Source: a virus
Taxonomy: Duplodnaviria; Heunggongvirae; Uroviricota; Caudoviricetes
Virus record (IMG/VR): IMGVR_UViG_3300010401_000032
Span: 1 to 26,144 of that record
Length of the DNA: 26,144 nucleotides
Reading direction: 5' to 3' (one strand)
In this document: one piece after another, positions 7,683-24,400 of the stretch
Numbering within the stretch: the stretch's first letter is position 1
Layout of the letters: the number at the start of each line of letters is the position of its first letter
Translations under genes and position numbers: made by a program
The notes under the pieces: model-generated
The model's input: the letters and a program-made list of their open reading frames with translations, nothing else
Database searches by the model: none
Told to the model about the DNA's origin: nothing

Positions 7683-7827
7683 TGTGACAAGAGACCGGAT
7701 GTTATATATAACGCTTGTACCCGCAAGCGTGATCCGGATTTTAGCCCCACCATACACGTGGGATAATAAGAGACGCTTACTTAAAAAAGAAAAGAGATTC
7801 GTTTTCTCAAGAAACGGAATAGATATA

Positions 7828-8784: not shown

Positions 8785-9295
8785 TACCCACTTCGGGCAT
8801 ACCAATATTATCCGCTACTGTTCGCGACCTTTTGCGAATGTAGCGGAGATGAATGAGGGGCTCATCGAAAGATGGAATTCTCGTGTCACTAAGGGTGACA
8901 CGGTGTTTCACTTGGGCGACTTCTTTTATTCTATGAAAAAGGATGAAGCGATTGAAGTATTGCATCGTTTGAATGGACAGGTACGTATAGTGCCGGGCAA
9001 TCACGATAAACTCATCCATAGGATGTGGGAATCGTGGCAACTGTGCGAAGTTCGAAGATCAGAATTATTTGTACTTGAGCAACCTATAATAGAAATTCAT
9101 CACGAGCACAAGATGTTGGTATTATGCCACTTTCCTATTGAATCGTGGCATCAAAAGGAACGAGGGTCAATCCACTTACATGGACATAGCCACGGCAACT
9201 CTACGCCCACAATTAATAGATACGATGTAGGCGTAGATGTCTATGGTGGTCCAGTTACATTAGAAGAGCTAGAAAATAGAAAAGGATGGGCATGA
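8762..9295 (+). CDS. Calcineurin-like metallophosphoesterase
   Basis: SDTHFGH, HLGDF, GNHD, CHFP, HLHGHSH motifs. Confidence 0.92.
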   Translation: MTIFFTSDTHFGHTNIIRYCSRPFANVAEMNEGLIERWNSRVTKGDTVFHLGDFFYSMKKDEAIEVLHRLNGQVRIVPGNHDKLIHRMWESWQLCEVRRSELFVLEQPIIEIHHEHKMLVLCHFPIESWHQKERGSIHLHGHSHGNSTPTINRYDVGVDVYGGPVTLEELENRKGWA

Positions 9296-10401
9296 GATAC
9301 GATATAGCTACGGCAGAACTAGATCCCGCAACAAAAGTATTTATTCTGAATGCTTATAAAAAGGGATTAGAATTCCTGTCGTCCAATTATTTTATCATTC
9401 CCGATAAAGTTGAAGAGCTATTTGCTCTAATTCGTGCTCGTAAAGATTATACCGGCGAAGTGTCTTCTTCGTCATATATGTACTTTGAAACTGATGGCTA
9501 TCACATAGCTATCAATAAGGTTTCTAACATTTTATTGTTCGCCTGTCCAAATATCGCATGGTGCCAAGATTTTGTTAAAGGATTAGACGGATTCTCTAAA
9601 ACAAAAGAAAATGGCAGTATCAATATCGACTACTTCTTTCTTGCCAGCCATGGTGTTAGCAGAAATATCATCGAAGTTAATATTGATACCATGGAACAGA
9701 TTCACCCCGGATTGTATCCCGATGTTGACATTGATATTTTAAGCAGTGAATACATGAATGATAAGGATTCCATCCTTTTCTTAGCGGGAATCCCCGGAGT
9801 CGGTAAAACGACCTTCATGCGGTATCTTTTGCAGCGATTTGCAAAAAGGCAACTAAATCCCGATCTATTAGAATTACTTACCGGTGAATCTATTGCCTAC
9901 GTCAAAGACATGTCAGTAATGTCACAGAGTCAGTTCTGGTGTGAGCTTGTTAGTTCTAAATACAACATCATTATCTTTGACGATCTGGACTTCGGGCTTG
10001 CAACAAGAGACAACCCTGGCAATAACATCGTAAGCAATCTACTATCTTACAGCGATGGTATATTCGGCTCTAAAGCTAAGATCGTTATTACGACTAATAT
10101 GGCCATCACCGATATCGATAAGGCTTTACTACGCCCTGGAAGATGCTTCGATTTCCTCGTCTTAAATCCGCTAACTCGGAGCGACGCTTTAAATGCTTGG
10201 ATAACTATTCTTAATTTACCAAAAGAAGATTTTGAAGCACAGTGGCCAGATGCAAAAGAAATTACTCAATCAGATCTCATGAGTGTATCTTATCGTATTC
10301 GCGAAAGCAGAAAGCAACGCACATACGTTAAGAAAGGTAAGAATATTTATAATGTTGAAGATAAGATGAAACAAATGCTATCACCGGTAGGCTTTAAATG
10401 A
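9286..10401 (+). CDS. AAA+ ATPase
   Basis: Walker A GIPGVGKT, Walker B IIIFDDLD, TTN...IDKALLRPGRCF second region of homology. Confidence 0.9.
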   Translation: MGMRYDIATAELDPATKVFILNAYKKGLEFLSSNYFIIPDKVEELFALIRARKDYTGEVSSSSYMYFETDGYHIAINKVSNILLFACPNIAWCQDFVKGLDGFSKTKENGSINIDYFFLASHGVSRNIIEVNIDTMEQIHPGLYPDVDIDILSSEYMNDKDSILFLAGIPGVGKTTFMRYLLQRFAKRQLNPDLLELLTGESIAYVKDMSVMSQSQFWCELVSSKYNIIIFDDLDFGLATRDNPGNNIVSNLLSYSDGIFGSKAKIVITTNMAITDIDKALLRPGRCFDFLVLNPLTRSDALNAWITILNLPKEDFEAQWPDAKEITQSDLMSVSYRIRESRKQRTYVKKGKNIYNVEDKMKQMLSPVGFK

Positions 10402-13241: not shown

Positions 13242-13472
13242 TTACCAGTATCGATCCAGTGTTTCTTTTGCGATTTTCAACGTATAGCCAGTGATGTATC
13301 GGTGCAGCTTGATTGCCGCAAGCTTGTCTCCCTTGGTGACTCGTGCCAATTCCTGAGCCACTTCTTCATTAGTCCAGGTAGGACGCACCGGTTGTTCCGG
13401 CTTGATAGGGCCAAGGCGAACATGGGCCACGAATTCCAAGATCTCTTCAAGGCTGTCAAATTCAAGCTTCAT
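13242..13472 (-). CDS. Small protein with ribosomal L7/L12 C-terminal-like motif
   Basis: GDKLAAIKLHRYITGYTLKIAKETLD resembles the L12 CTD KIxxIKxVRxxTGLGLKEAKxxV; leaderless ATG 13472. Confidence 0.65.
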   Translation of the reverse strand: MKLEFDSLEEILEFVAHVRLGPIKPEQPVRPTWTNEEVAQELARVTKGDKLAAIKLHRYITGYTLKIAKETLDRYW

Positions 13473-13478
13473 AGTATC

Positions 13479-13507
13479 AGTATATCCAATAAACGTAACA
13501 GACGCAA
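13479..13507 (-). promoter_or_regulatory. Leaderless sigma-70 promoter
   Basis: TTGCGT-17-TATACT-6nt-ATG. Confidence 0.75.
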
Positions 13508-13572
13508 GCAAGAAGTGTTGGAAATAGTAATATTACAAAGAATAGAAGAAGCTTGGAAATGAGATATTTCAT

Positions 13573-13646
13573 AAAAAAGGGGACCTATCCTTTGTGCGTG
13601 GGCAGTTTAGATAGGTCCCCGATGCGGCTTCACGCCAACTTCTCTC
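13573..13646 (-). ncRNA. Candidate ~75-nt sRNA
   Basis: Own promoter TTGACT(13680)-16-TATACT(13653); ends in an 11-bp GC stem with 20-nt loop plus U6; no ORF. Confidence 0.55.
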
Positions 13647-13668
13647 GATGACAGTATATACTATCCTG

Positions 13669-14010
13669 TCATCGAGTCAAGAATCTCTTCATTTGTTCCA
13701 TCGAAGCTTGGATGTTTTTGCATCCAACGGGATTCGCAGAATGAATCGACCACTTTAGAGGATACAGAATAATACCTGGACCAGAGCCATGGCGATCAAC
13801 GAAAGCCATCATTTCCAGGAACTTTGCGACATCGTATCCCGTGCCTCGATCTTCGCCGAGATCATGATCGAAGCTAATCCATTCGATCGACTCACGATTG
13901 AGCCAGAGAAGACCGATACACTCTTTCGCCGTTCGGCAAATGGTCCAACCCTCATCCTTCTCGCCTTCGAGGTAGGACGGATTACGGATATCGTCGAGCC
14001 AAATCTTCAT
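13669..14010 (-). CDS. Cyclic-phosphate processing receiver-domain protein
   Basis: MKIWLDDIR.P, ISFDHDLG..RGTGYDV, IHSANPVG..NI signature; TAATG-coupled start 14010. Confidence 0.85.
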   Translation of the reverse strand: MKIWLDDIRNPSYLEGEKDEGWTICRTAKECIGLLWLNRESIEWISFDHDLGEDRGTGYDVAKFLEMMAFVDRHGSGPGIILYPLKWSIHSANPVGCKNIQASMEQMKRFLTR

Positions 14011-14177
14011 TATGCAGTCCCCAGATTTTGTCCTGTCAGTTTCTTCCAATTGAAAGCAATCCACCTACGGCAGCCACGATGAATGACATTGCCGTCCTTT
14101 AGGATTACAAACTCAGAACCAAATCTATTGAGGCCAATCCAATCGGCCCGCAGATTGTTGAACTCGGAAACGATCAT
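14010..14177 (-). CDS. 55-aa hypothetical protein MIVSEFNNLRADW...
   Basis: Not in track; promoter TTGGAA(14213)-16-TATAAT(14186) ends 8 nt before ATG; coupled to the receiver gene. Confidence 0.65.
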   Translation of the reverse strand: MIVSEFNNLRADWIGLNRFGSEFVILKDGNVIHRGCRRWIAFNWKKLTGQNLGTA

Positions 14178-14202
14178 AGTATTTCATTATACTATTTCCA
14201 GC

Positions 14203-14475
14203 CTACTTTCCAAATTCTCTTACAATCTCCTTACATGTCTGAATGTCCTCGATTTCGAGGGGTCCGGACAGATCGGCGAGCTTGGAAATGAAGAGCTTAG
14301 AAATGGCGTGTTTGTTCTTCCATTCCGTGTCTTGACCTAGAACGTGCGAAAGGTCGCAGATCGTTCTCATGTGTTCACAGAACTGAAACACGATGCCTGA
14401 CAGGTTGCACCCGTTTTGGACGAGTAGTGCATCCCGTGCGGCATCGGCATACCGCTTCTTCATGGCCGTATCCAT
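14203..14475 (-). CDS. 90-aa hypothetical protein MDTAMKKRYADAARDALLVQNGCNLSG...
   Basis: C-terminal part of track ORF 14203..14994; true start fixed by the leaderless promoter. Confidence 0.7.
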   Translation of the reverse strand: MDTAMKKRYADAARDALLVQNGCNLSGIVFQFCEHMRTICDLSHVLGQDTEWKNKHAISKLFISKLADLSGPLEIEDIQTCKEIVREFGK

Positions 14476-14481
14476 GGCTGG

Positions 14482-14510
14482 ATTGTAACACAGTGCGATA
14501 GCTCTGTCAA
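14482..14510 (-). promoter_or_regulatory. Leaderless sigma-70 promoter
   Basis: TTGACA-17-TACAAT-6nt-ATG. Confidence 0.8.
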
Positions 14511-14524
14511 TTCGGAAACGTAAT

Positions 14525-14553
14525 TTGCCGTGCAAGAGTTTATGCACTATTCT
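14525..14553 (+). promoter_or_regulatory. Divergent sigma-70 promoter
   Basis: TTGCCG-17-TATTCT; GTGCA-N8-TGCAC in the spacer. Confidence 0.65.
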
Positions 14554-14601
14554 AGGGCACCTTAGGCAATGGAGCCTAAAAACCACAATCAGGAGTGCAT
14601 C

Positions 14602-14745
14602 ATGGTCAACACCCTCAAGATTCAAGCGATCGAGCAAGGTACGACCCTCCAGGAACTCGTGTCCGAGATCCTCGGACGGGCTGGCATCGCTCGCCCGCGT
14701 GGACGCCCGAGGGGCCGCCGGCCCGCGACCGAGCAAGCTCAGTAG
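14602..14745 (+). CDS. 47-aa ribbon-helix-helix-like protein with C-terminal AT-hook
   Basis: MVNTLKIQAIEQGTTLQELVSEILGRAGIARPRGRPRGRRPATEQAQ; AGGAG RBS; not in track. Confidence 0.7.
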   Translation: MVNTLKIQAIEQGTTLQELVSEILGRAGIARPRGRPRGRRPATEQAQ

Positions 14746-14789
14746 TCGTCCCGGGTTCGGGAATTCGAAGGGCAAGCCAAGGAATTGGC

Positions 14790-14817
14790 TTGCTCTTTCG
14801 TCACTACCTACTATTAT
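14790..14817 (+). promoter_or_regulatory. Leaderless sigma-70 promoter
   Basis: TTGCTC-16-TATTAT-6nt-ATG; CCTAC/GTAGG arms flank the -10. Confidence 0.65.
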
Positions 14818-14823
14818 GTAGGC

Positions 14824-15009
14824 ATGGCACACAAGCTCGCTCACTTCTTCCCCTCCATCCTTACAGACCACAAAAATAGGAGCTATCTTGTAATTCAATT
14901 TACGGATGGTAGGGGCGAGCTTCAAATGGATATGAGAATTCCACTGTACCAAAACGATCCGGGGGCCGTCAAAGACGACCCCCGAGATCAGCAAACGAGC
15001 GTAACCTAG
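14824..15009 (+). CDS. 61-aa hypothetical protein MAHKLAHFFPSILT...
   Basis: Track frame 14785; start fixed by the leaderless promoter. Confidence 0.55.
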   Translation: MAHKLAHFFPSILTDHKNRSYLVIQFTDGRGELQMDMRIPLYQNDPGAVKDDPRDQQTSVT

Positions 15010-15011
15010 CG

Positions 15012-15176
15012 TTACGCAACGAGCCGCAGAATAGCCTTATGCACCGCCTCGTTGAGGTTGATGCCTTGGGCCGCTGCGAACTTCTTGACCAAATTCTTGG
15101 TCGAAGTGGGGATCCGAACGCCAAGAACGGACGTTTGGATGTTGAACGTGGACGGACGACCGAGCTTAGTAGCCAT
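15012..15176 (-). CDS. Ribbon-helix-helix DNA-binding protein with N-terminal GRP motif
   Basis: LGVRIPTSTKNLVKKFAAAQGINLNEAVHKAI RHH pattern; AAGGAG RBS. Confidence 0.78.
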   Translation of the reverse strand: MATKLGRPSTFNIQTSVLGVRIPTSTKNLVKKFAAAQGINLNEAVHKAILRLVA

Positions 15177-15197
15177 TTGCGATTCTCCTTTAGTAAT

Positions 15198-15250
15198 ACT
15201 AGAAACCATATCTAGTGGGAGGAGTATAGCACGGCCGGACCCGTTTACAA
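15198..15250 (-). promoter_or_regulatory. Promoter and 5' hairpin for the RHH gene
   Basis: TTGTAA-16-TATACT (extended TG); ACTAGA-N7-TCTAGT starts at the predicted +1. Confidence 0.65.
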
Positions 15251-15262
15251 GTTACGGGACAG

Positions 15263-15514
15263 TCATTTTGCGAACGGCAAGGAAGAATACGTCCATTCTT
15301 GACTTACCGTCCGGCCGTAGCCGTTCCAGTGCTCCAGGAGCCTATAAAGACTTCGCTCATCGAAGACTTGGACGTAACTCGTGCCCGTACGACCTGTCTT
15401 GTGATGCTTCCAATAGTACGGCACGCTGACCATACCCTTGGGGATGTCCTGCTGTCGAGTAGCCCGAGCGTAGTTCACTCCGGCCTCGTACAGGATGGGC
15501 TCTTCGTAATTCAA
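15263..15514 (-). CDS. Hypothetical protein
   Basis: Track start 15547; TTG 15514 (TTGA overlap, SD AAGGA upstream) preferred. Confidence 0.6.
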   Translation of the reverse strand: MNYEEPILYEAGVNYARATRQQDIPKGMVSVPYYWKHHKTGRTGTSYVQVFDERSLYRLLEHWNGYGRTVSQEWTYSSLPFAK

Positions 15515-15960
15515 TTGCCGCCCTTTTCCTTTTGTGAAAGGATCCATTCTCTAACTTGAGCCGGCGGACCCTTGACGAGGCTATTCCAACCAAAGTCAAG
15601 AATCTCAATCGAGAGAGAACAAGCCTCGTCAACGCTCACGATATAGACGTACTCTTCGCCAACATCCTTTGTGCCAGCCGGCTCAAGGTAGAAGTTCCCC
15701 ACCGATGTCCGGGCCGCCGTGTGCTTAGTCTTCGGATGGCTTCGCTTCAAACGTGCAACGATTTGAGCCGCGAGACACCCGGCTCCATTTGCCACGTTTT
15801 TATCTTCGTAGGAACTAATACCGTTTGTGATTCTGAAAGGCAGAAGGAAATCCACAAGTTCCAATCCGTGACCCTCGGGATAACCGTCCATTTGACGATA
15901 GAGGGTGAGGATATCTGCCCCACTTTCATTACGCACAATTGTAAGCGATCGAGTATCCAT
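15511..15960 (-). CDS. Conserved phage protein (YRxxDGYP motif)
   Basis: LYRQMDGYPEGHG...GCLAAQ...EEYVY is a recurrent phage hypothetical family. Confidence 0.75.
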   Translation of the reverse strand: MDTRSLTIVRNESGADILTLYRQMDGYPEGHGLELVDFLLPFRITNGISSYEDKNVANGAGCLAAQIVARLKRSHPKTKHTAARTSVGNFYLEPAGTKDVGEEYVYIVSVDEACSLSIEILDFGWNSLVKGPPAQVREWILSQKEKGGN

Positions 15961-15962
15961 GA

Positions 15963-16190
15963 TTATGTCTTTCTAAATCGTGGTAGTTGACGGATCCAGG
16001 AATTGTCGCCTTCTTCATATCGGATATCAGCATACAGCCGCAGAAATGCGGGAGCGTCGATATCTTGCTCTAAATAGAGATACTTGCCCGATTGCCGGCT
16101 GTACGGCGAAATCTTTAGCCCTACCCGCTTGGCTTCTGATAGCGGGACCTCAAGCCATGCACGGCCCGAGTCTGCGAGGAGGCGGAACAT
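15963..16190 (-). CDS. Conserved phage/plasmid small protein (DPGHGWL-like)
   Basis: ADSGRAWLEVP...ISPYS...YLYLEQDIDA. Confidence 0.7.
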   Translation of the reverse strand: MFRLLADSGRAWLEVPLSEAKRVGLKISPYSRQSGKYLYLEQDIDAPAFLRLYADIRYEEGDNSWIRQLPRFRKT

Positions 16191-16192
16191 GG

Positions 16193-16345
16193 CTATTCGC
16201 CAAAATAGCGAGCCATCGCCTCAAGCTCTTCGCCGCTAGGCGGCGGGACCCCGGGAATGTCCTCCCAAGCGTCCGCAGGAGCTTCCACGCTGGCCCAAAG
16301 GTCCGCCTTGATGATCGCTGCCTCGCCTTGTTCGGTGTTCTTCAT
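16193..16345 (-). CDS. 50-aa acidic hypothetical protein MKNTEQGEAAII...
   Basis: Not in track; leaderless start. Confidence 0.65.
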   Translation of the reverse strand: MKNTEQGEAAIIKADLWASVEAPADAWEDIPGVPPPSGEELEAMARYFGE

Positions 16346-16351
16346 GAATGT

Positions 16352-16379
16352 ATTATACATCATGCGGCCGAATAGGCAA
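16352..16379 (-). promoter_or_regulatory. Leaderless sigma-70 promoter
   Basis: TTGCCT-16-TATAAT-6nt-ATG. Confidence 0.8.
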
Positions 16380-16387
16380 GTAATATT

Positions 16388-16540
16388 CTAGATAAATCTC
16401 ACCCACCAACATTTACACGCTCTTCGTGTGCATCGAAAATACCACGCTACATTTCCAAGCCATATAATAGGATCACCGAAAGATGTCTTTCTCTCGTGCT
16501 TGGCAAAACGATGCTGGCATTTAGGACAAGTGGATATCAT
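16388..16540 (-). CDS. 50-aa Zn-ribbon-like protein
   Basis: CPKC...CTRRAC; ATGA-coupled start 16540. Confidence 0.6.
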   Translation of the reverse strand: MISTCPKCQHRFAKHERKTSFGDPIIWLGNVAWYFRCTRRACKCWWVRFI

Positions 16541-16824
16541 ACTGGCAACTTCGGAAATACACCGAATGCCTGAAAGCACCGAACGTGTGCATTTATCATG
16601 CTTGGAAAAGGACCCAGGAGATCCTCGTCATTGCTTCGAATGAACCAGTTATCTCCACGCCTAGCAATCTGATATTCGGGGCCGTGCGAATGCAGTATGG
16701 TAACAACGTCGATATCAGAAAGCTTCATATGATTACAGTCTCCGCAAGAATCGGGCTGCCCACAATCGGGACAAAGCTCATCTTCGGGATAATCCCACTT
16801 GCGTCCGTATCGATCGGTGCTCAC
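16537..16824 (-). CDS. Cys-rich hypothetical protein
   Basis: CPDCGQPDSCGDCNH; ATGA-coupled. Confidence 0.7.
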   Translation of the reverse strand: MSTDRYGRKWDYPEDELCPDCGQPDSCGDCNHMKLSDIDVVTILHSHGPEYQIARRGDNWFIRSNDEDLLGPFPSMINAHVRCFQAFGVFPKLPV

Positions 16825-17177
16825 AATTGCTCTTCGATGATGTCGGCAATCTTTTCGAATGGGATGCCGTTGTCATTGAGATCTGAAAGAGTACCAGCCC
16901 AAGATTCTTCCATTTCGTAATCGATACTTGGATCACAATCAACTAGGCCGGCCCAAGCTTGGACTTCCTCGGGTAGATAATCCCCTTCCTCTAAATAAGT
17001 GCATGGGGAACCATCTACTTCGAACATCCGCCACTTATTGCCAGTTTCCTCAGCATGCAATGCACAAAGGACGCCGAGACAGCAATATCCATTGGCATTC
17101 TTTAGGGCACGATCGGTCTGCTGAAACATGCCACTTCGAAGTGCGGCCGTCCATCTAGACTTGACTTGCAGCTTCAA
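16821..17177 (-). CDS. Conserved phage protein (YCCLGV motif)
   Basis: WTAALRSG.FQQ...YCCLGVLC...LSDLNDNG.PF.KIADIIE; TTG 17177 with GAGG preferred over 17201. Confidence 0.75.
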   Translation of the reverse strand: MKLQVKSRWTAALRSGMFQQTDRALKNANGYCCLGVLCALHAEETGNKWRMFEVDGSPCTYLEEGDYLPEEVQAWAGLVDCDPSIDYEMEESWAGTLSDLNDNGIPFEKIADIIEEQL

Positions 17178-17377
17178 ATTATGATTCCTCGGATTTCCCA
17201 CTTGTTACTGGGGAAGAACTCATGATCCTCATACAGACCCTTGTAGAATCGAGCCTTGTCCGCTGAATCCCACAGTTTCACTACATTGGGATTAGAAGTA
17301 GTATACCATTCCTTAGTTCTCTCGTCAACTGCGATATACTGATCTTTTCCAGCTTTGAAATAGAAAAGTTCTTTCAC
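17174..17377 (-). CDS. Hypothetical protein
   Basis: GTGA-coupled 67-aa ORF. Confidence 0.65.
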   Translation of the reverse strand: MKELFYFKAGKDQYIAVDERTKEWYTTSNPNVVKLWDSADKARFYKGLYEDHEFFPSNKWEIRGIII

Positions 17378-17547
17378 GAGAACATCCCCAATTGTTGGAC
17401 GGCAGAAACTTGGATGCGAGCCTTGTTGCCCGGCTTAGCCCGATTGTACTTGGCGAGCCACACTACGCAATCGCCGTAGTTCGCCTTGTCGTCGGTTTCG
17501 GTGGACCGGTAGAGGAGCAGGCCGTTCTCGACAACCTCGTAGCTCAT
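17374..17547 (-). CDS. 57-aa hypothetical protein MSYEVVENGLLLYRS...
   Basis: Not in track; leaderless start; coupled to the next gene. Confidence 0.7.
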   Translation of the reverse strand: MSYEVVENGLLLYRSTETDDKANYGDCVVWLAKYNRAKPGNKARIQVSAVQQLGMFS

Positions 17548-17553
17548 GACTCC

Positions 17554-17581
17554 ATTATAGCATGTATTGCATGCTAGTCAA
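17554..17581 (-). promoter_or_regulatory. Leaderless sigma-70 promoter with palindromic spacer
   Basis: TTGACT-16-TATAAT-6nt-ATG; TAGCATG-N5-CATGCTA. Confidence 0.85.
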
Positions 17582-17584
17582 ATA

Positions 17585-18139
17585 CTATCCAGGAAACTCG
17601 GCCTCTTGCTTTACCTTTACCGCCATCGTTTCGGGCAGATCGTGGAGGAGCAGATAGACCTCGCCCCCGAATGAGAGACTCCGGATCGAGTCCAGTGCGT
17701 AATCCCGAACGAGAATTTCCTTCTCCGTTTCCTGCCGGCTGGACTTGCTCCGGGCCGGGAGATACGGGGCGACTTGCTCTTCCGTCAACATGGTGCCATC
17801 GGCCGCGAAATAGGTATGATTGAGACTCTTCTCAACCTTCGTTTCCAAATACAGTTTGTCATTATGTTCAACAAACATCGTGCCCGGAACTCGCCGGCCC
17901 CACTGGCGGGGATCCGCTTCGAAGTCACCTTCCGAACCTTCCCGCAAACGCTGCCGATTGACCGCGTTCTCATACTGGAATCCGAGGCAAACATTGACGC
18001 GAGACAACTTGCGGACTTGGCCGTAAGGATTGCCAGTCTTCTTGAGTCTGGCGTCCGTGTCCGTGCAAATCGTGGCGAACGTCGCTCCCTTGATGCTGAG
18101 GAGCAGGGTGACGAGATTGTCTTTGGAGATGACCTTCAT
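17585..18139 (-). CDS. Conserved phage hypothetical protein
   Basis: 184 aa; GATFATI...KKTGNPY...YENAVN...WG..V...FVEH..KLYLE; AAGGA RBS. Confidence 0.78.
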   Translation of the reverse strand: MKVISKDNLVTLLLSIKGATFATICTDTDARLKKTGNPYGQVRKLSRVNVCLGFQYENAVNRQRLREGSEGDFEADPRQWGRRVPGTMFVEHNDKLYLETKVEKSLNHTYFAADGTMLTEEQVAPYLPARSKSSRQETEKEILVRDYALDSIRSLSFGGEVYLLLHDLPETMAVKVKQEAEFPG

Positions 18140-18155
18140 AGCTCTTCGCTTTCCT

Positions 18156-18202
18156 TATGGCGTCTGAACGCCATAGTATACCATATCGCTCTTCGCTGTC
18201 AA
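18156..18202 (-). promoter_or_regulatory. Sigma-70 promoter with palindrome across +1
   Basis: TTGACA-16-TATACT (extended TG), then TATGGCGT-N4-ACGCCATA. Confidence 0.8.
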
Positions 18203-18208
18203 GTCAAT

Positions 18209-18718
18209 CTAGGGGCATTTATTGTGTCGATACCCACGGCCGCCCAACGCCAGATTCTCATTGTGCCTTTTGAGTCTAATCGGACTCAACATGATCGATT
18301 GGCCACACGTGCCACACGCGGCGGGAGTCATTACCACCTTTCGCTTGAAAGCTTCGGCGACCTCCAGAGTATGGCACCGCTCGCCATTGCCACCTAGGCG
18401 AATATGCATTGCTTGCCACGCTTCGCCGTGATCGATTTTGCGACCCGTAGGACCCCGGAAGGGCGGGGCCAGAATATGGGCAAATTCGTGCGTGACGGTA
18501 TTGTAGAAATCGTCCGCAAAGTTAGTTTCATCGGCGTAGAATGGCAGTGAAAGCTTTACGATTTTACTTAGGCACTTGGCTTTACCAGCGGCCTCAGTCA
18601 TCCGAGTAGAAATCTCTATCCGAATTTGACGAAGTACCGGCCCCAAATCAGGGTGTTTGATAGCGAGTACGTCACGAATACAATAGGCTTCGTGGAGTAA
18701 ATCTTGTGCGGACTTCAT
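18209..18718 (-). CDS. SprT-like zinc metalloprotease
   Basis: AAGKA, TVTHEFAHI, HGEAWQ, CH, CGTC motifs. Confidence 0.85.
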   Translation of the reverse strand: MKSAQDLLHEAYCIRDVLAIKHPDLGPVLRQIRIEISTRMTEAAGKAKCLSKIVKLSLPFYADETNFADDFYNTVTHEFAHILAPPFRGPTGRKIDHGEAWQAMHIRLGGNGERCHTLEVAEAFKRKVVMTPAACGTCGQSIMLSPIRLKRHNENLALGGRGYRHNKCP

Positions 18719-18720
18719 GG

Positions 18721-18930
18721 CTATTTGCTACACTTACAGTCTTCGAAAGCACCTTCTGAATGGCCAGCAGATTCAATAGATGCATAGAATATCTTGCCAT
18801 CGAATCGATACGGTCTGACGTAACGAAGTCCACCTTCGGGGTCCGGTTGCTTGGGCTTCGGATTCCCGCATGCGACGTATGCGTCACGCACGGCCCTTTC
18901 GTGGGCCAATCGCTTTTGCCATTCTTCCAT
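18721..18930 (-). CDS. 69-aa hypothetical protein
   Basis: Leaderless start. Confidence 0.7.
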   Translation of the reverse strand: MEEWQKRLAHERAVRDAYVACGNPKPKQPDPEGGLRYVRPYRFDGKIFYASIESAGHSEGAFEDCKCSK

Positions 18931-18936
18931 GGTTTC

Positions 18937-18965
18937 ATTATAGCATATTACTATATGCTAGTCAA
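18937..18965 (-). promoter_or_regulatory. Leaderless sigma-70 promoter with palindromic spacer
   Basis: TTGACT-17-TATAAT-6nt-ATG; TAGCATAT-N4-ATATGCTA. Confidence 0.85.
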
Positions 18966-18981
18966 GACCCTTACATAAGTA

Positions 18982-19269
18982 TTACTTTACGTAAAGTGCA
19001 ATTGTTCTCTTTACGTTTTCCAGCGTTCGAACCATCGCTGCCGTATCTTCCGATTTGAGCCGAATGTAAATCGCTGGACCAAACATCCCATCATAATTTA
19101 CTTCACAAACTCCATCAATTCTAGAAAGAATAGAAGTCAATGTTGCGGGATAAGCGTATGTCCCAGTCGTAGTCTTGTATAGATCGACGGAATCCCTATC
19201 TAGTATTTTGAAGAACTGTTCTTTAGCAATCTCGATGCAGTAGGAGCGTTCGGTTTCGGTTACTTTCAT
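18982..19269 (-). CDS. Hypothetical protein
   Basis: 95 aa; start preceded by the GAAGA hairpin. Confidence 0.7.
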   Translation of the reverse strand: MKVTETERSYCIEIAKEQFFKILDRDSVDLYKTTTGTYAYPATLTSILSRIDGVCEVNYDGMFGPAIYIRLKSEDTAAMVRTLENVKRTIALYVK

Positions 19270-19278
19270 AGCTCTTCG

Positions 19279-19539
19279 CTAGGGGATCCATTGAGTTAGA
19301 CAAATTCTATTTCCAGGCTGAACCGTATACAGGAATCCAGCATAGCGGCTTCCGCGATTGTATTCGTCTACCCAAGGACGCGGGGTAAAGTAATTTGCAG
19401 AGCTACAGGACTCACCCTTTGCGAAGGCAGGCACCGCACGACTATTCCACAAATTCCAAATGTCGGAAGTCCAGATAGCTTCCTTGGAATTGATGCACGT
19501 TCGCATGGCCACTCGCCTAATTTTTACAAGGCTTGCCAT
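19279..19539 (-). CDS. Hypothetical protein
   Basis: 86-aa ORF; start may be ATG 19506. Confidence 0.55.
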   Translation of the reverse strand: MASLVKIRRVAMRTCINSKEAIWTSDIWNLWNSRAVPAFAKGESCSSANYFTPRPWVDEYNRGSRYAGFLYTVQPGNRICLTQWIP

Positions 19540-19601
19540 GATATCGATTCCGCCCGCAGTCGGGGCAAAAACTGAATCGTCTACTCCAGGCTTCTAGGAC
19601 G

Positions 19602-20036
19602 CTAGCTAGCCACTGGAGAAGAATCGCTATCGGCTCCAGCGTCCGAGCTTTCATCTTCCACATACGAGCTACGACCTTTCTTGCCACTGGTCACAGTATA
19701 CCCTCGCTGTTGCAATACTCCAATAAGAAAGTCGTCCTTTTGTGACTGCAACAGCGAAGTTACATGATCCTTTACTTGTTGGCAAGCTCCTTCAATTGCA
19801 ACGATCATGGCTTCGACCGCAATTCCTTCCCCCATGGGAATCGGATCGCCGATAGCCTCATCGAGGTAAGCCTTGGCCGCGTCCGTGAGCGTAGGATAAT
19901 GCTTCTCGGGATTACGCCACTTGGATTGTTTTGCCTGTCCGGCAAACCTCCCGCGTTCGATGGTCTCGCCGCCTTCTTGCCACTCTTGGATGGACCAATT
20001 GTAGGCATCGGATCTGATAATTCGCCTCTTCGGCAT
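19602..20036 (-). CDS. Hypothetical protein
   Basis: 144 aa; AAGGA RBS and GAAUA hairpin at the start. Confidence 0.75.
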   Translation of the reverse strand: MPKRRIIRSDAYNWSIQEWQEGGETIERGRFAGQAKQSKWRNPEKHYPTLTDAAKAYLDEAIGDPIPMGEGIAVEAMIVAIEGACQQVKDHVTSLLQSQKDDFLIGVLQQRGYTVTSGKKGRSSYVEDESSDAGADSDSSPVAS

Positions 20037-20038
20037 AG

Positions 20039-20209
20039 CTATTCGCTTTCCTTGATTTCGATTGAATCTTGTTCAACTTCACAAAAATCAGTAGCTTCGC
20101 AAGTGCCCATATCGCCATCATCGAACATTTCTAGGGCTTCTTCCTTGCTTGCAGCTTCGATAATTGTGTAATATCCCTGGATTTCTGTCCAGTCAATTCG
20201 GTATTTCAT
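20039..20209 (-). CDS. 56-aa acidic protein MKYRIDWTEIQGYYTIIEAASKEEA... (DpnD/PcfM-like pattern)
   Basis: Not in track; ATGA-coupled. Confidence 0.7.
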   Translation of the reverse strand: MKYRIDWTEIQGYYTIIEAASKEEALEMFDDGDMGTCEATDFCEVEQDSIEIKESE

Positions 20210-20367
20210 AGCTCTTCGCTATTCCCTTCAAGGACTACCGACAGTATACTACGAAACGTCCGCAAGTCAATTTGATTCTGCTTTATCCACATCCATACTA
20301 AATTCATACGTTCGTATGGACCGGGCTCTTCTCTGAGCCTTTGAATGCATTCGGGCAGAGTCTTCAC
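20206..20367 (-). CDS. 53-aa hypothetical protein
   Basis: Track frame 20442; GTG 20367 immediately after the upstream stop preferred. Confidence 0.55.
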   Translation of the reverse strand: MKTLPECIQRLREEPGPYERMNLVWMWIKQNQIDLRTFRSILSVVLEGNSEEL

Positions 20368-20368
20368 A

Positions 20369-20641
20369 CTAGCGGTAGTCGTTATCTTCCCAGTTGTCCG
20401 GATCGTCCGCGTCCGTAAACTCCTCGAACCGTACCGGTTCAAGGATGACGGGGGCAGCTACTTCTCTACGTTCGCCGTTTCTTACTTCCACTAACGACAA
20501 TCTATAATTGCCGCTATTACGTCGTTCGTATTCTAGGACTTGGAATGGATCGCCTTCGCTTGGCATGACCGCCGAGTGATAGTGCCGGCCGTCCATGATC
20601 TCATGTAGGATAAAGTTTTCGTGCTCTTTAGGTTTACTCAT
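20369..20641 (-). CDS. Acidic hypothetical protein
   Basis: 90 aa; promoter 9 nt upstream. Confidence 0.7.
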   Translation of the reverse strand: MSKPKEHENFILHEIMDGRHYHSAVMPSEGDPFQVLEYERRNSGNYRLSLVEVRNGERREVAAPVILEPVRFEEFTDADDPDNWEDNDYR

Positions 20642-20643
20642 TT

Positions 20644-20679
20644 ACGCTACATTATAGCGTCAGTCCATTTGCCAGTCAA
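20644..20679 (-). promoter_or_regulatory. Sigma-70 promoter, -10 inside a palindrome
   Basis: TTGACT-17-TATAAT; ACGCTA-N5-TAGCGT around the -10. Confidence 0.8.
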
Positions 20680-20944
20680 TCTTTTTCTCGGAACTTTCAT
20701 TTCCAAGGTCAGAATCTTCAACTACATAGAGTTTATTTTTGATTCTAACGTAGCATGTTCCCGCGTTACTAATTTGATAGGTTAGCATCCGTCGCCATCG
20801 CCCGAGCACATAGAGCATTCTGTGCGACCGAAACATCCCGTATTCCTTTGGGTTCCTTCCTAGGTACGTGTCCCACTTCCAGGGTACGGGCTTTCCCGTG
20901 ATGCTTCGAAGTGTTAGCATTTGAATTAGTTTGCCAGCTTCCAA
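20660..20944 (-). CDS. Hypothetical protein
   Basis: 94 aa, TTG start. Confidence 0.55.
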   Translation of the reverse strand: MEAGKLIQMLTLRSITGKPVPWKWDTYLGRNPKEYGMFRSHRMLYVLGRWRRMLTYQISNAGTCYVRIKNKLYVVEDSDLGNESSEKKIDWQMD

Positions 20945-21111
20945 TAGGATTTAGGAACGTCGTTTTTGGCAATATGTATCATTAGTGCCAATTCGATACA
21001 ACGCCTACAGTCCTCAGGCGTATGCAATCCTCGCTTTTTCAATTCTTGCCATTCCGAGCACAATTGCAGAAAGCGGCGTTTTGCGAATTGCTTTAGGGTC
21101 ATGCCTTCCAT
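20926..21111 (-). CDS. 61-aa hypothetical protein
   Basis: Promoter TTGACT(21146)-16-TATAAT(21119), 7 nt before ATG. Confidence 0.65.
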   Translation of the reverse strand: MEGMTLKQFAKRRFLQLCSEWQELKKRGLHTPEDCRRCIELALMIHIAKNDVPKSYWKLAN

Positions 21112-21126
21112 ACGTTTTATTATACC

Positions 21127-21477
21127 CTAATGGAGGGGATAGTCAACCGTTTTCACAGACTTATCCCAGCACGCTCTACAATCCTGGCAGTTATTATTTT
21201 GTTGACGGGCGGGGCATTTGAAGTGAATGATTTTCGCCATGCCGTTTGCCCATTCCCGAACGTCGAATTGGACAATCGCCAATCGCCGGTATTGAGCTTT
21301 CTGTACGCACGGGAATACATACATTCCTTTCAAAGCGTAACACTTACTGCAAACGCTTCCGATTTTCTTTCTCAGGATTGCCCCGATGATACAAGCCTTT
21401 GCCGGTAGCCCATAGGCAAATCCCGGCATTTTAGAAGGCTTGGAAAGGCCGCCAACCAGTACGTCTAATCTTCCCAT
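21127..21477 (-). CDS. Gp88-like (mycobacteriophage gene 88 family) Cys-rich protein, apparently internally shortened
   Basis: GGLSKPSKMPG.AYGLPA..C..G..L....GSVCSKCYALKG.Y and CPA..Q...CQDCRACWD..V..V.Y.LH; start ATG 21477. Confidence 0.7.
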   Translation of the reverse strand: MGRLDVLVGGLSKPSKMPGFAYGLPAKACIIGAILRKKIGSVCSKCYALKGMYVFPCVQKAQYRRLAIVQFDVREWANGMAKIIHFKCPARQQNNNCQDCRACWDKSVKTVDYPLH

Positions 21478-21572
21478 TTTACCAGCACATAAACGTAACA
21501 AAGGAAAATAATGACGACTAGGAAAACAAGGCACTGCCCAATTTGACGGAAGAAACGTATGATTGGACGCAT
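21465..21572 (-). CDS. 35-aa membrane microprotein MRPIIRFFRQIGQCLVFLVVIIFLCYVYVLVKWED
   Basis: C-terminal part of track ORF 21465..21680; basic then hydrophobic. Confidence 0.5.
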   Translation of the reverse strand: MRPIIRFFRQIGQCLVFLVVIIFLCYVYVLVKWED

Positions 21573-21624
21573 TGCGTCAATCAAATCATCTTCTCTACCG
21601 TACTGAGCAAAGGGGACGTAAACG

Positions 21625-21658
21625 CTAGGCGGGGCACCGCGAACGCTGCCCCGCCTAG
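21625..21658 (-). terminator. GC-rich hairpin, probable terminator
   Basis: CTAGGCGGGGCA-N10-TGCCCCGCCTAG downstream of the RHH gene. Confidence 0.55.
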
Positions 21659-21721
21659 AGCCAACCGTATTTGAGGACATGGAGACAGTCTACCCTATAC
21701 TGGGTATCCCGTCAACCGTTC

Positions 21722-21940
21722 TCAGCGAGTAGCTTCCTTGAATCCACGCTGAATCAGTTGATCCAGGGCTTGATTGATGTTGATCTCGCGGTCGGTCGCA
21801 AACTTGCGAACCATTTGCCGGGTCGAACGCGGAACGTGAGCCTGGAACGGCACCGTTTCGACATTGCCGAACGAAGACGGGCGACCGGGGCCGGCGGCGG
21901 GAGCGGACTTGACTTTGCGGGTAGCGGTAGCATTGCTCAT
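21722..21940 (-). CDS. Ribbon-helix-helix protein with GRP motif (paralog of 15012-15176)
   Basis: GRPSSF...FQAHVPRSTRQMVRKFATDREININQALDQLI; GGAG RBS. Confidence 0.78.
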   Translation of the reverse strand: MSNATATRKVKSAPAAGPGRPSSFGNVETVPFQAHVPRSTRQMVRKFATDREININQALDQLIQRGFKEATR

Positions 21941-21981
21941 ATGTTTCTCCAGATTGTTTGTTGGGCGGAATTGCCCGAAGT

Positions 21982-22009
21982 AATATAGCCTATTCTGCTA
22001 GGCTGTCAA
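21982..22009 (-). promoter_or_regulatory. Sigma-70 promoter with palindromic spacer
   Basis: TTGACA-16-TATATT; AGCCTA-N6-TAGGCT. Confidence 0.75.
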
Positions 22010-22333
22010 GGGAAAAAGAATCTTCTCAATCTCAGGCTTCAAAGCAGCTTCTACGTCCGATCGAGTCCACGCGGGATCCCCGTAGATCGGACGCGAAAGG
22101 CAATACCTGAGAAACTCAGTACGCTTTTCAGCATCCGAGAAATGATTTTCGTAGAACGTATCACGATTGTATTCGGCGATGTTACCGAACATGTTCGAAA
22201 GGTCCACGTAAAACCACTTGTAGAAAAGTGTCTTCGGGCATCCCTTCCTGTAGAATTGCAGGAAGTGCTTGAAAAGCTTTTCCTTGTGTTCTACAGAATA
22301 GAATTGCGTTGCCGTGAATTGAGGGGCATTCAT
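21998..22333 (-). CDS. Conserved hypothetical protein (FGxIAxYN motif)
   Basis: 111 aa, leaderless start. Confidence 0.75.
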   Translation of the reverse strand: MNAPQFTATQFYSVEHKEKLFKHFLQFYRKGCPKTLFYKWFYVDLSNMFGNIAEYNRDTFYENHFSDAEKRTEFLRYCLSRPIYGDPAWTRSDVEAALKPEIEKILFPLTA

Positions 22334-22339
22334 GGAAAC

Positions 22340-22367
22340 ATTATAGCCTATTCGGCAGGGGTTGCAA
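22340..22367 (-). promoter_or_regulatory. Leaderless sigma-70 promoter
   Basis: TTGCAA-16-TATAAT-6nt-ATG. Confidence 0.8.
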
Positions 22368-22401
22368 TGGGAAAACGAAAAAACTTTTTGAAGCTCTTCG
22401 C

Positions 22402-22429
22402 TTGACTAGCACGCAAGGCGTGCTATAAT
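22402..22429 (+). promoter_or_regulatory. Divergent sigma-70 promoter with palindromic spacer
   Basis: TTGACT-16-TATAAT; TAGCACGC-AAG-GCGTGCTA. Confidence 0.85.
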
Positions 22430-22435
22430 AAGGGC

Positions 22436-22585
22436 GTTCTTTGGTGCGAAAGCGTGTGCCATGGGAGGACGTCTCCAAGTCTGTGCCTCTATATGGGGCT
22501 AAGGACTAACATGGATTCGGGTTTACCGAGCCACCTAGCTGTAGGGTCATTGGCAGGAGTAACGAGCCAACATACAGTCAAAGAA
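22436..22585 (+). ncRNA. Candidate 150-nt structured RNA or structured 5' leader
   Basis: Predicted +1 starts a terminal helix GUUCUU/AAGAAC; several internal hairpins including a GAAA tetraloop; no ORF. Confidence 0.55.
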
Positions 22586-22598
22586 CACTAATACAATC

Positions 22599-22817
22599 AT
22601 GGAAACCACCGATCCTACAAAGTACCGCGTCACTTATATTTGTAAGTGTTCAGCGGATTATGCAGAAGGCTACGGGAATACTCCCGAGGAAGCCGAAGGT
22701 AAAGTAAAGGAATTCTGGAAAATCGGCGGACATAAGATTGCCGATATCGCCAGTCGAATTGTTGAGATTGCCGTTATGCATGGAAATGGCGGATCACATT
22801 ACGAGGAAGTTACTTGA
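22599..22817 (+). CDS. 72-aa hypothetical protein
   Basis: ORF track; protein-like composition; no SD. Confidence 0.65.
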   Translation: METTDPTKYRVTYICKCSADYAEGYGNTPEEAEGKVKEFWKIGGHKIADIASRIVEIAVMHGNGGSHYEEVT

Positions 22818-22841
22818 CTTCCAAGCTCAATGTGATATAGT
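22814..22841 (+). promoter_or_regulatory. Sigma-70 promoter into a non-coding region
   Basis: TTGACT-16-TATAGT, extended TG. Confidence 0.75.
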
Positions 22842-22847
22842 ATACCG

Positions 22848-23050
22848 TCCTAGCAAGAGAATCCGCGATTGGGACCTACCGTGTGGGTAGGATGGCCCCG
22901 CCCAATCCCGAGTAGCCGCCTTGAGCGGCGGGGCCGCTCCCGCCAGCCCGCATGGTCGCCCCGCCGTCACAGTAAGGCGAACTTGGATGAACCTGTGATT
23001 TTATTTTAGAAATTACAGTAAGGCGTATGCGGAGCCACCTGTAATTTGAA
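22848..23050 (+). ncRNA. Candidate ~200-nt GC-rich structured RNA with tandem 3' motif
   Basis: Nested stems 22864-22910, alternative GGCGGGG/CCCCGCC pairings, and two ACAG-TAAGGCG-N12-CCTGT stem-loops. Confidence 0.6.
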
Positions 23051-23114
23051 ATTTCACTTTGCTTGGAATGGTAAAATTCTAGATTCTGATTTCTAGATTT
23101 GACCCGGTATCTAT

Positions 23115-23154
23115 TTAAAGCAAAGAAGCCGGCGATTCTGGCAATCTGCCGGCT
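23115..23154 (-). terminator. Intrinsic terminator
   Basis: AGCCGGC...GCCGGCT hairpin followed by TCTTTGCTTT on the minus strand. Confidence 0.65.
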
Positions 23155-23169
23155 CCTCAAGTGTGGCGA

Positions 23170-23300
23170 AAGTCCAATGTTATTCTTCCGCTTCCTACCG
23201 TCAATACTCAGGCTGCGATTTTATCAACTGACCGGAATATCAACGGTCGTCAGTTGCGTTGTTCGCTCTTTCAAAGCACACTACGGCAGGCGTTCGACTG
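23170..23300 (-). ncRNA. Candidate structured RNA 3' of the HNH gene
   Basis: Multibranch fold whose G-U pairs and GAAA tetraloop form only on the minus strand. Confidence 0.45.
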
Positions 23301-23306
23301 TCGGGC

Positions 23307-23777
23307 TCATATTGGGTCAACCGAACGCCATGCTTTATAATTCACAATATCTGTAATTGTTGATTTGCCCACCCTGTAAAACTCGGCTATCGTTTTATGT
23401 TTTACTCCATTTGAAGCCATCTCACGTATTGATATAACTTTATCCCGCGAGAGTTTAGCAAACGGATTACTTTCTCCAAGATGTCTACCGTTTTTATGAC
23501 GACCTTTTCGCATCTTGTCACTTACATTATCTGCATTAGTGCCAAGAAACAAATGATCCGGTCGTACGCATGCACGATTGTCACACTTGTGGCAAACACA
23601 CATACCTTCTGGTATCGCACCAAAGTGTATAATCCATGCAATACGGTGGGCACGAACTGTTTTCTGATTGTAATAGAACTGGCCGTATCCCTTAGAATGT
23701 TTATTACCTATCCAATTCCAGCATTCGGCAGTTTTATCTACCCTTTCCCAGAATTTGTCGAGCGTAATTTGATCCAT
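23307..23777 (-). CDS. HNH (His-Me finger) homing endonuclease with C-terminal HTH
   Basis: CWNW.G....[29 protein letters not shown]; C-terminal NPFAKLS...HTH. Confidence 0.92.
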
Positions 23778-23790
23778 CAGACACGTTGAA

Positions 23791-23868
23791 TGGTGGCAGG
23801 GACGAGATTCGCACTCGTGGTCTCCTCCTTATGAGGGAGGCGTCGTAGCTAGACTGGACTACCCTGCT
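23791..23868 (-). tRNA. tRNA with CAU anticodon (Met/fMet/Ile2 unresolved), CCA encoded
   Basis: Full 78-nt cloverleaf: acceptor GCAGGG/CCCUGC, anticodon arm CCUCC-CUCAUAA-GGAGG, T arm ACGAG-UGCGAAU-CUCGU, 3' ACCA. Confidence 0.9.
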
Positions 23869-23874
23869 AATTAT

Positions 23875-23903
23875 ATTATATCTCAAAGAACAAGGAAAGT
23901 CAA
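23875..23903 (-). promoter_or_regulatory. Sigma-70 promoter for the tRNA
   Basis: TTGACT-17-TATAAT; predicted +1 equals tRNA nucleotide 1. Confidence 0.85.
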
Positions 23904-23939
23904 CACTATTCCAAGTTTTTGGCGATTAATCACAACTTT

Positions 23940-24007
23940 GCTTTAAAAAGCAGGCCGGCGACCACGGCCAGTCGTGACTAATTTGGGCTCGTCAATTCCC
24001 TTCCGCG
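23940..24007 (-). ncRNA. Candidate ~65-nt sRNA
   Basis: Promoter TTGACA(24042)-17-TACTAT(24014); GGCCG/CGGCC hairpin plus UGCUUUUU; no ORF. Confidence 0.45.
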
Positions 24008-24102
24008 ACCAGTATAGTACACCAAGACGCCTGAGTTGTCAAGATTTTTCTTTTTTAAGCTCCACACTTGACAAACTACTAAACCTACGCTATAGTAAGA
24101 GA

Positions 24103-24150
24103 CATCTTGTCGCACCTGAAACTTAGAGGCTAAGTAGCTGGCGACTTTTA
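24103..24150 (+). ncRNA. Candidate ~50-nt sRNA
   Basis: Promoter TTGACA(24068)-17-TATAGT(24096); GUCGC/GCGAC outer stem enclosing ACUUAG/CUAAGU, then UUUU. Confidence 0.45.
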
Positions 24151-24193
24151 CATTTCGCGAACCCAGATCTTACAACCATTCCAAGCAAAAAAG

Positions 24194-24221
24194 TTGCCCG
24201 TCCTTTAGGACGAGCTATAAT
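24194..24221 (+). promoter_or_regulatory. Sigma-70 promoter with palindromic spacer
   Basis: TTGCCC-16-TATAAT-8nt-ATG; CGTCCT-TT-AGGACG. Confidence 0.8.
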
Positions 24222-24229
24222 AAACACCC

Positions 24230-24400
24230 ATGAAGACATACATAGCCAGCATGATACGAGTGACCATTCTTTTTGCCCTTCTACGGGTATTTGGGGAGGC
24301 GACTGAGACGGCACTTATCATGGTGTTTGGATGGGAGATACTGAATAGGGCATGCGAGATAAAGGATATTGTGGCGGCGGCAAAAGAAAGTAAAGTTTAG
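24230..24400 (+). CDS. 56-aa membrane microprotein MKTYIASMIRVTILFALL...
   Basis: Not in track; promoter-proximal; paralog at 24615. Confidence 0.7.
   Translation: MKTYIASMIRVTILFALLRVFGEATETALIMVFGWEILNRACEIKDIVAAAKESKV

Follow-up and report, generated by a model that had tools for sequence, protein, structure and literature searches.

Leaderless transcripts, which begin at the start codon itself, are found in bacteria and in their phages. The middle and late transcripts of the Thermus phage P23-45 are leaderless, the leaderless message of the lambda cI gene comes from the PRM promoter, and mycobacterial leaderless genes make use of GTG as start codon, too. In bacteria, leaderless genes are marked by a TANNNT motif whose first base lies about 12 nucleotides (nt) ahead of the start codon (Zheng et al., 2011, PMC3160421), and they have been described in mycobacteria as well (PMC4633059). 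Among phages, lambda cI is expressed from a leaderless mRNA (PMC9031893), most middle and late messages of phiYS40 are reported to be leaderless (summarized in PMC3594737), and in the cluster O mycobacteriophages, Corndog and its relatives, the SigA-like promoters PL1, PR2 and PL2 are predicted to start transcription at the start codon (PMC4351075). Differential RNA sequencing of phiKZ revealed no leaderless transcript (PMC8244752). Here we analyze a stretch of 26,144 nt (the window), the first 26 kb of the IMG/VR virus record IMGVR_UViG_3300010401_000032, which is a 161,114-bp single-contig record of an uncultured soil phage of the class Caudoviricetes (G000). Within this window and beyond, promoters of host type stand so close to ATG codons that the resulting transcripts are predicted to be leaderless.

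An earlier note on the window had described exactly 6 nt between the -10 hexamer and the ATG at seven start codons (13472, 14475, 14824, 16345, 17547, 18930 and 22333), together with somewhat wider gaps at four others. Direct reading and scripts reproduced all seven, and the four wider gaps were recovered with lengths of 7 nt (21111), 8 nt (14177 and 24230) and 9 nt (20641). A twelfth site, absent from the earlier note, is located at 21680 on the minus strand (TTGACG-17-TAGACT-6-ATG, 71 amino acids (aa)). In total, the window comprises eight sites with a gap of 6 nt and four with gaps of 7–9 nt (Table 1). That the listed sites lack a Shine-Dalgarno (SD) sequence was confirmed by direct reading, because the 5–9 nt between -10 box and ATG leave no room for one; a GGAG located 2 nt before ATG 17547 lies too close to serve as SD site. 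At nine of the 11 listed sites, a -35 box with zero to two mismatches to TTGACA is found at a distance of 16–17 nt, and this box is perfect at 14475. The string TATAAT-N6-ATG occurs four times in the window compared to 0.44 times in shuffled sequences, and none of 100 shuffles reached four. Likewise, an independent consensus scan detected 50 promoter-like sites between 12.5 and 24.6 kb, where shuffles gave 14.0 ± 3.9.

The earlier note described this design for early genes at 13–24 kb. It is indeed present there, but it also occurs throughout the genome and in all four relatives analyzed. Five IMG/VR contigs of 91–169 kb encode a terminase about 60% identical to that of G000, and four of these (G001, G002, G004 and G005) were analyzed as whole contigs; all clade counts refer to G000 plus these four. 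In each of the five genomes, the first ATG after a promoter-like site peaks at a gap of 6 nt. Pooled over 945 promoter-like sites, 89 ATGs fall at gap 6 (Poisson p = 5e-38), 42 at gap 5 (p = 1.5e-8) and 34 at gap 8 (p = 2.6e-5), against a background mean of 15.3 ATGs per gap, and at the same sites neither GTG nor TTG nor CTG shows any spacing peak. A pattern search in the relatives yielded 33 matches, compared to none for the reversed control pattern. After removal of near-identical paralogous copies, 120 non-redundant sites remained in the five genomes, 19–29 in each, and some of the G000 sites that lie beyond the window head core operons. Applied to the initial 50 kb of phage T5, a region packed with sigma70 promoters, the same scan found no site at gaps 5–6, and in a 100-kb stretch of the Thermus phage phiYS40 it gave only a weak peak at gaps 6–7.

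Such a pattern might in principle be an annotation artifact, produced by chance wherever AT-rich hexamers lie near the ATGs of spurious short open reading frames (ORFs), and the ORFs of the island are indeed short orphans. However, the enrichment is extreme and restricted to a single position and to ATG; four divergent genomes reproduce it, and T5 lacks it. Furthermore, a codon model derived from other genes of the island ranked the named frame best of six for ten of the 12 island ORFs (p = 8e-7), which favors coding, and conserved core genes share the design. Thus, we consider an artifact extremely improbable.

The suggestion of the earlier note that these genes are leaderless was strongly supported in silico by the spacing, by its specificity for ATG, by a pyrimidine at -1 followed by A at +1, by an unstructured 5' end and by an ATG that is, in most ORFs, the first possible start. 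Of 74 sites with a gap of 6 nt, 56 carry a C and 13 a T immediately before the ATG (C or T, 93%). Since RNA polymerase prefers to start at a purine preceded by a pyrimidine, C or T at -1 with A at +1 supports a transcription start at the ATG. For the initial 36 nt of 108 such ORFs, the mean folding energy is -2.99 kcal/mol, compared to -4.21 kcal/mol for SD-led starts (p = 6.5e-5) and -5.71 kcal/mol for internal ATGs (p = 5e-12). The folding is weaker even though the G+C content (GC) of the leaderless-type ORFs does not fall below that of the SD-led ones, and an unstructured 5' end is reported to raise leaderless translation (PMC8459731). In addition, the second codon encodes lysine at 45% of the leaderless-type sites but in only 10% of the SD-led genes. 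At most sites no other possible start codon lies between the upstream stop codon and the ATG, and for five conserved core genes the alignment with the orthologs begins at residues 1–5. In Lactococcus cremoris, leaders shorter than 5 nt fall within the measured leaderless mode, and leaders of 4–14 nt are absent (PMC10986495). Gaps of 7–9 nt would correspond to leaders of 1–3 nt and thus lie inside this mode.

One might speculate that the A/U-rich -10-like box, together with a hairpin before the AUG, acts mainly at the level of RNA, for example as a ribosome standby, S1 or processing site within long polycistronic transcripts. Terminator-like sites are not enriched in the island (17 compared to 11.5 ± 3.7), so that read-through is likely, and 14% of the strong leaderless-type promoters of the clade have a spacer with a perfect inverted repeat of 5 bp or more, compared to 3.9% in shuffles. 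However, an RNA signal would have no need for a TTGACA-like -35 box at exactly 16–18 nt, and both the pyrimidine rule at -1 and the sharpness of the spacing to a single nucleotide fit the start-site choice of RNA polymerase. A role in RNA and a role as promoter are not mutually exclusive, yet we regard a function mainly in RNA as very unlikely.

Taken together, these features make it likely that a near-consensus sigma70/sigmaA promoter of host type is fused to the start codon, yielding transcripts predicted to be leaderless, and that this is the standard way in which the clade expresses first cistrons. The 6-nt discriminator and the C/T-then-A context would direct RNA polymerase to start at the A of the AUG, and at the sites with gaps of 7–9 nt transcription would begin 1–3 nt before it. 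The resulting mRNA would possess neither a 5' untranslated region (UTR) nor an SD site, and the ribosome would load with fMet-tRNA on the 5'-terminal AUG. Downstream cistrons would then be reached via overlapping or closely abutting stop and start codons; in the island, such cistrons overlap as TAATG at 14010 and as GTGA at 17377, or follow after gaps of 2–5 nt at 16190, 18718 and 20920. Across the clade, this mode would serve the first gene of small accessory cassettes, for which the promoter type suggests early or middle expression, and several core operons, including those of the phage sigma factor, the GHKL ATPase and the kinase. Many of these genes probably lie within read-through transcripts as well, where they would lack a ribosome-binding site, and each leaderless gene would consequently be translated mainly from its own promoter. 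It is tempting to see deliberate control in this insulation: the promoter might double as the only translation signal, accessory genes might stay silent in read-through transcripts, and the early set might escape defenses directed against SD sites or 5' UTRs, or changes induced by the phage itself. Some leaderless-type promoters carry an inverted repeat of their own in the spacer, but overall we consider deliberate control unlikely.

Several points weigh against a fusion of promoter and start codon as the general explanation. About 5–8 of the 19–29 sites per genome are expected from background alone. At sites with a gap of 5 nt, the A of the ATG sits one position nearer to the -10 box than the usual start. 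The sites at 13472 and 14824 are the weakest of the window, as their -35 boxes match the consensus in only three of six positions. Moreover, the leaderless-type ORFs of the island belong to no Pfam or PHROG family. When all 20 leaderless ORFs of G000 were compared by tblastn with the four relatives, only the five core genes were conserved, and no island ORF had a counterpart there. Of the two island ORFs searched in a public protein collection, ORF 22333(-) matched one protein of 98% identity and the same length of 111 aa and nothing else, and for ORF 14475(-) no homolog was found. Being orphans, the island ORFs owe their coding status to ORF structure and codon statistics.

Table 1. Promoter-to-ATG units of the window, contrasting leadered genes of the island and further sites of the same genome. 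Promoters are given as -35 box, spacer length and -10 box; gap, nt between -10 box and ATG.
Feature	Coordinates	Strand	Promoter	Gap (nt)	ATG	Product	Remarks
Leaderless-type unit	13242..13507	-	13479-13507 TTGCGT-17-TATACT	6	13472	76 aa	-35 box 3/6; frame best of six
Leaderless-type unit	14010..14213	-	14186-14213 TTGGAA-16-TATAAT	8	14177	55 aa	ATG is first possible start; stop overlaps start of cREC_REC gene at 14010 (TAATG)
Leaderless-type unit	14203..14510	-	14482-14510 TTGACA-17-TACAAT	6	14475	90 aa	frame best of six
Leaderless-type unit	14790..15009	+	14790-14817 TTGCTC-16-TATTAT (promoter-like)	6	14824	61 aa	weak -35 box; least certain site
Leaderless-type unit	16193..16379	-	16352-16379 TTGCCT-16-TATAAT	6	16345	50 aa	next cistron 2 nt past stop
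Leaderless-type unit	17374..17581	-	17554-17581 TTGACT-16-TATAAT	6	17547	57 aa	TGn; palindromic spacer; next cistron begins by GTGA overlap at 17377
Leaderless-type unit	18721..18965	-	18937-18965 TTGACT-17-TATAAT	6	18930	69 aa	TGn; palindromic spacer; followed by SprT-like gene 18209-18718
Leaderless-type unit	20369..20679	-	20651-20679 TTGACT-17-TATAAT	9	20641	90 aa	predicted leader 2-3 nt
Leaderless-type unit	20926..21146	-	21119-21146 TTGACT-16-TATAAT	7	21111	61 aa	
Leaderless-type unit	21465..21715	-	21687-21715 TTGACG-17-TAGACT	6	21680	71 aa	hydrophobic tail
Leaderless-type unit	21998..22367	-	22340-22367 TTGCAA-16-TATAAT	6	22333	111 aa	
Leaderless-type unit	24194..24400	+	24194-24221 TTGCCC-16-TATAAT	8	24230	56 aa, hydrophobic	coding-frame score weak
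SD-led contrast gene	14602..14745	+				small, RHH-like by reading	AGGAG 6 nt before ATG
SD-led contrast gene	15012..15250	-	15223-15250		15176	small, RHH-like by reading	GGAG 8 nt before ATG; alternative start 15209
SD-led contrast gene	21722..22009	-	21982-22009 TTGACA-16-TATATT	41	21940	72 aa, RHH-like by reading	GGAG 6 nt before ATG
Leadered contrast unit	18139..18202	-	18175-18202		18139		leader of ~30 nt ends in AGCGAAGAGCU directly before ATG
Leadered contrast unit	20209-20270	-			20209		design as at 18139; leader ends in AGCGAAGAGCU directly before ATG
Site outside window				6	36101		
Site outside window				5	36870	638-aa GHKL ATPase	
Site outside window				6	48208		
Site outside window				8	54200		
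Site outside window				9	58658		
Site outside window				6	59513	AAA_33 kinase	
Site outside window				6	109519	sigma factor	
Site outside window				6	120214	151-aa gene	

The island of G000 spans about 11–23 kb and differs from the remaining genome in its GC of 50% compared to 42%. Ten of the leaderless-type units lie between 22367 and 13242 on the minus strand, and two on the plus strand. Comparable promoter-dense islands are present at 8–24 kb in G005, 29–42 kb in G002, 113–137 kb in G001 and 1–6.5 kb in G004, and in all five phages they exceed their own genome by 3–9 GC points. Since island gene content differs from phage to phage, the architecture is conserved across the clade, but the cargo is not.

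Not all genes of the island follow the leaderless design, as the contrast genes of Table 1 illustrate. In addition, the motif GCGAAGAGC / GCGAATAGC (AGC-GAAGA-GCU), which could form a hairpin of 3–5 bp with a pentaloop, is located directly before the ATGs at 16190, 18139, 18718, 19269, 20036 and 20209, all of them starts of internal or leadered cistrons. It is also found beside two promoters (18188–18196 and 22393–22401), and with at most one mismatch it occurs 18 times in the window compared to 6.2 expected matches. The motif may replace the SD site for genes that are not leaderless. A further peculiarity concerns the promoters at 17554–17581, 18937–18965 and 22402–22429, which share the frame TTGACT-AGCA...TGCT-ATAAT around a distinct palindrome of 6–7 bp each. 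As a general part of the design, spacer palindromes were nevertheless rejected, given that only 14% of the strong leaderless-type promoters possess one.

Promoters for candidate non-coding RNAs and for a tRNA are interleaved with the protein-coding units (12821, 13653, 22429, 22841, 23875 and 24096). On the minus strand at 13560–13680, a strong promoter (TTGACT-16-TATACT, -10 box ending at 13653) precedes a GC-rich hairpin of 11 bp and a T run by about 35 nt. No ORF intervenes, which makes this region a candidate small RNA of about 80 nt. On the plus strand, the regions 22402–23160 and 24068–24190 comprise three consensus promoters with -10 boxes ending at 22429, 22841 and 24096, followed by long stretches devoid of a plausible ORF; these are candidate non-coding RNAs, too. 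An Rfam search over 12.5–24.5 kb detected tRNA only. This tRNA, a tRNA-CAU at 23791–23868 (-), has its own consensus promoter and an encoded CCA, is followed by an HNH endonuclease gene (23307–23777), and shows an A1-C72 mismatch atop the acceptor stem. It is the sole tRNA-CAU. Despite the mismatch, it was rejected as a phage-supplied initiator tRNA, since the three G-C pairs adjoining the anticodon loop are missing and U11:A24 is present.

The two ends of the G000 record overlap, and IMG/VR assigns it to the class of direct terminal repeats. The genome encodes a DnaE-type polymerase, a class II ribonucleotide reductase, a large terminase, 21 tRNAs and a sigma-factor-like protein. Furthermore, a methionine aminopeptidase (Map) lies beside a peptide deformylase (Def) at 73445–74875 (+), a pair for N-terminal methionine processing that is kept in all four relatives with 47–57% identity. 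In the window, genes for a RlaP-family nucleotidyltransferase, a metallophosphoesterase and an AAA ATPase stand in a row at 7684–10401 (+). They are of RNA-repair type, and the gene for a protein with a cREC_REC receiver domain within the island (13669–14010, -) was grouped with them. Sequence comparison gave little indication of the host, and isolate phages proved to be distant. Megablast of the region against them returned no match. Judged by terminase, Bacillus phages come nearest with 23% identity, which is uninformative for the host, and the matches of DnaE are scattered. A scan of viral contigs with the SprT-like protein revealed no relatives of the island.

With respect to the biological meaning of the design, the comparison of orthologs is instructive. 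Three of the phages have the GHKL ATPase gene in leaderless form, namely G000 (gap 5), G001 (gap 8) and G004 (gap 6), but in G002 and G005 it is preceded by a leader of about 30–40 nt with an AAGGA-type SD site. Similarly, G000 alone has leaderless versions of the sigma factor gene and of the 151-aa gene at 120214, which are SD-led or leadered in the relatives. As orthologs switch between both modes, the hosts of these phages must be able to use either. Among the structural genes, 47% are preceded by an SD-like motif, compared to a background of 5.6%.

These observations bear on the proposal of the earlier note that the design constitutes a program which stays translatable when canonical initiation is blocked. 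One could envision a countermeasure that keeps early phage proteins in production when the phage itself or an abortive-infection toxin of the host stops SD-dependent initiation. Such a scenario would fit the heavy investment of the phage in translation, namely its 21 tRNAs, the clade-conserved Map-Def pair and the RNA-repair-type genes (RlaP, cREC_REC), and phiYS40 is reported to shift host IF2 and IF3 levels in favor of its leaderless messages (PMC3594737). However, the proposal found no support: SD-led, RHH-like regulator genes (14602+, 15176- and 21940-) are located in the same island, strong SD sites precede many late genes, among which structural genes are often SD-led, and in sister phages the same genes carry SD-led leaders. 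In addition, no phage-encoded component for a takeover of initiation as in phiYS40 was found, neither a homolog of IF1, IF3 or S21 in any of the five genomes nor an initiator tRNA, the sole tRNA-CAU not being a canonical one. Consequently, we consider a countermeasure quite unlikely.

What chiefly competes as an explanation for the design is host mimicry: if the host belonged to a leaderless-rich lineage (for instance Actinobacteria, Deinococcus-Thermus, Acidobacteria or delta-Proteobacteria), the architecture would be nothing but ordinary host gene structure. In those groups, several of them relevant to soil, 13–39% of the genes are leaderless and show the same -10 geometry (PMC3160421). The elevated GC of all five islands hints at a host GC above that of the phages, SD-like motifs on 16–47% of the phage genes make SD dependence look moderate, and the orthologs switch freely between both modes. 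When an alignment of the clade's Map proteins was searched against a genome collection, the best cellular matches came from Acidimicrobiia and Acidobacteriota, though with only 31–36% identity and through a pattern-biased search. In contrast, the phage GC of 43–50% across the clade is well below that of typical leaderless-rich lineages. The promoters argue in the same direction, as -35 boxes are weak in leaderless genes of high-GC groups. There, only the TAnnnT signal at -10 has been described (PMC3160421), whereas the boxes found here are strong. On balance, we give host mimicry slightly less than an even chance.

Whichever meaning applies, the clade-wide fusion of promoter and start codon at about 120 sites of the five genomes helps to correct the calling of gene starts and to recognize likely early genes of uncultured phages. 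The natural pairs of one gene that is leaderless in one phage and SD-led in another would allow testing how each mode benefits the virus. A host with few leaderless genes would suggest an expression strategy specific to the phage, and a host rich in them ordinary mimicry.

Compared with known systems, the geometry is identical to that of bacterial leaderless genes, with -10 hexamer, 6 nt, start codon and no SD site (PMC3160421, PMC4633059), and related bacterial genomes likewise switch between SD-led and leaderless genes. Unlike these, the present case concerns phages of 43–50% GC with strong -35 boxes, frequent TGn elements and ATG as the only start codon. Lambda cI resembles our sites as a phage transcript that begins at the A of the AUG and is translated without an SD site, which is predicted here; it is, however, a single regulatory gene in a host that rarely uses this mode, whereas here the design is genome-wide. 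The cluster O mycobacteriophages possess three such promoters per genome compared to roughly 12–20 here, and they infect an actinobacterium, in which leaderless genes are the usual case. PhiYS40 likewise is a large phage, and it is reported to express a whole temporal gene class from leaderless messages. Yet its leaderless genes are middle and late and its host lineage is leaderless-rich, whereas here promoters of host type, probably early or middle, are leaderless and late genes are SD-led; moreover, the spacing peak of phiYS40 is much weaker than that of the G000 clade in the same scan. Thus, leaderless phage genes as such were already known. What is new is a large, statistically clean and clade-wide case, which is set apart by host-type promoters with full -35/-10 consensus in phages of intermediate GC.

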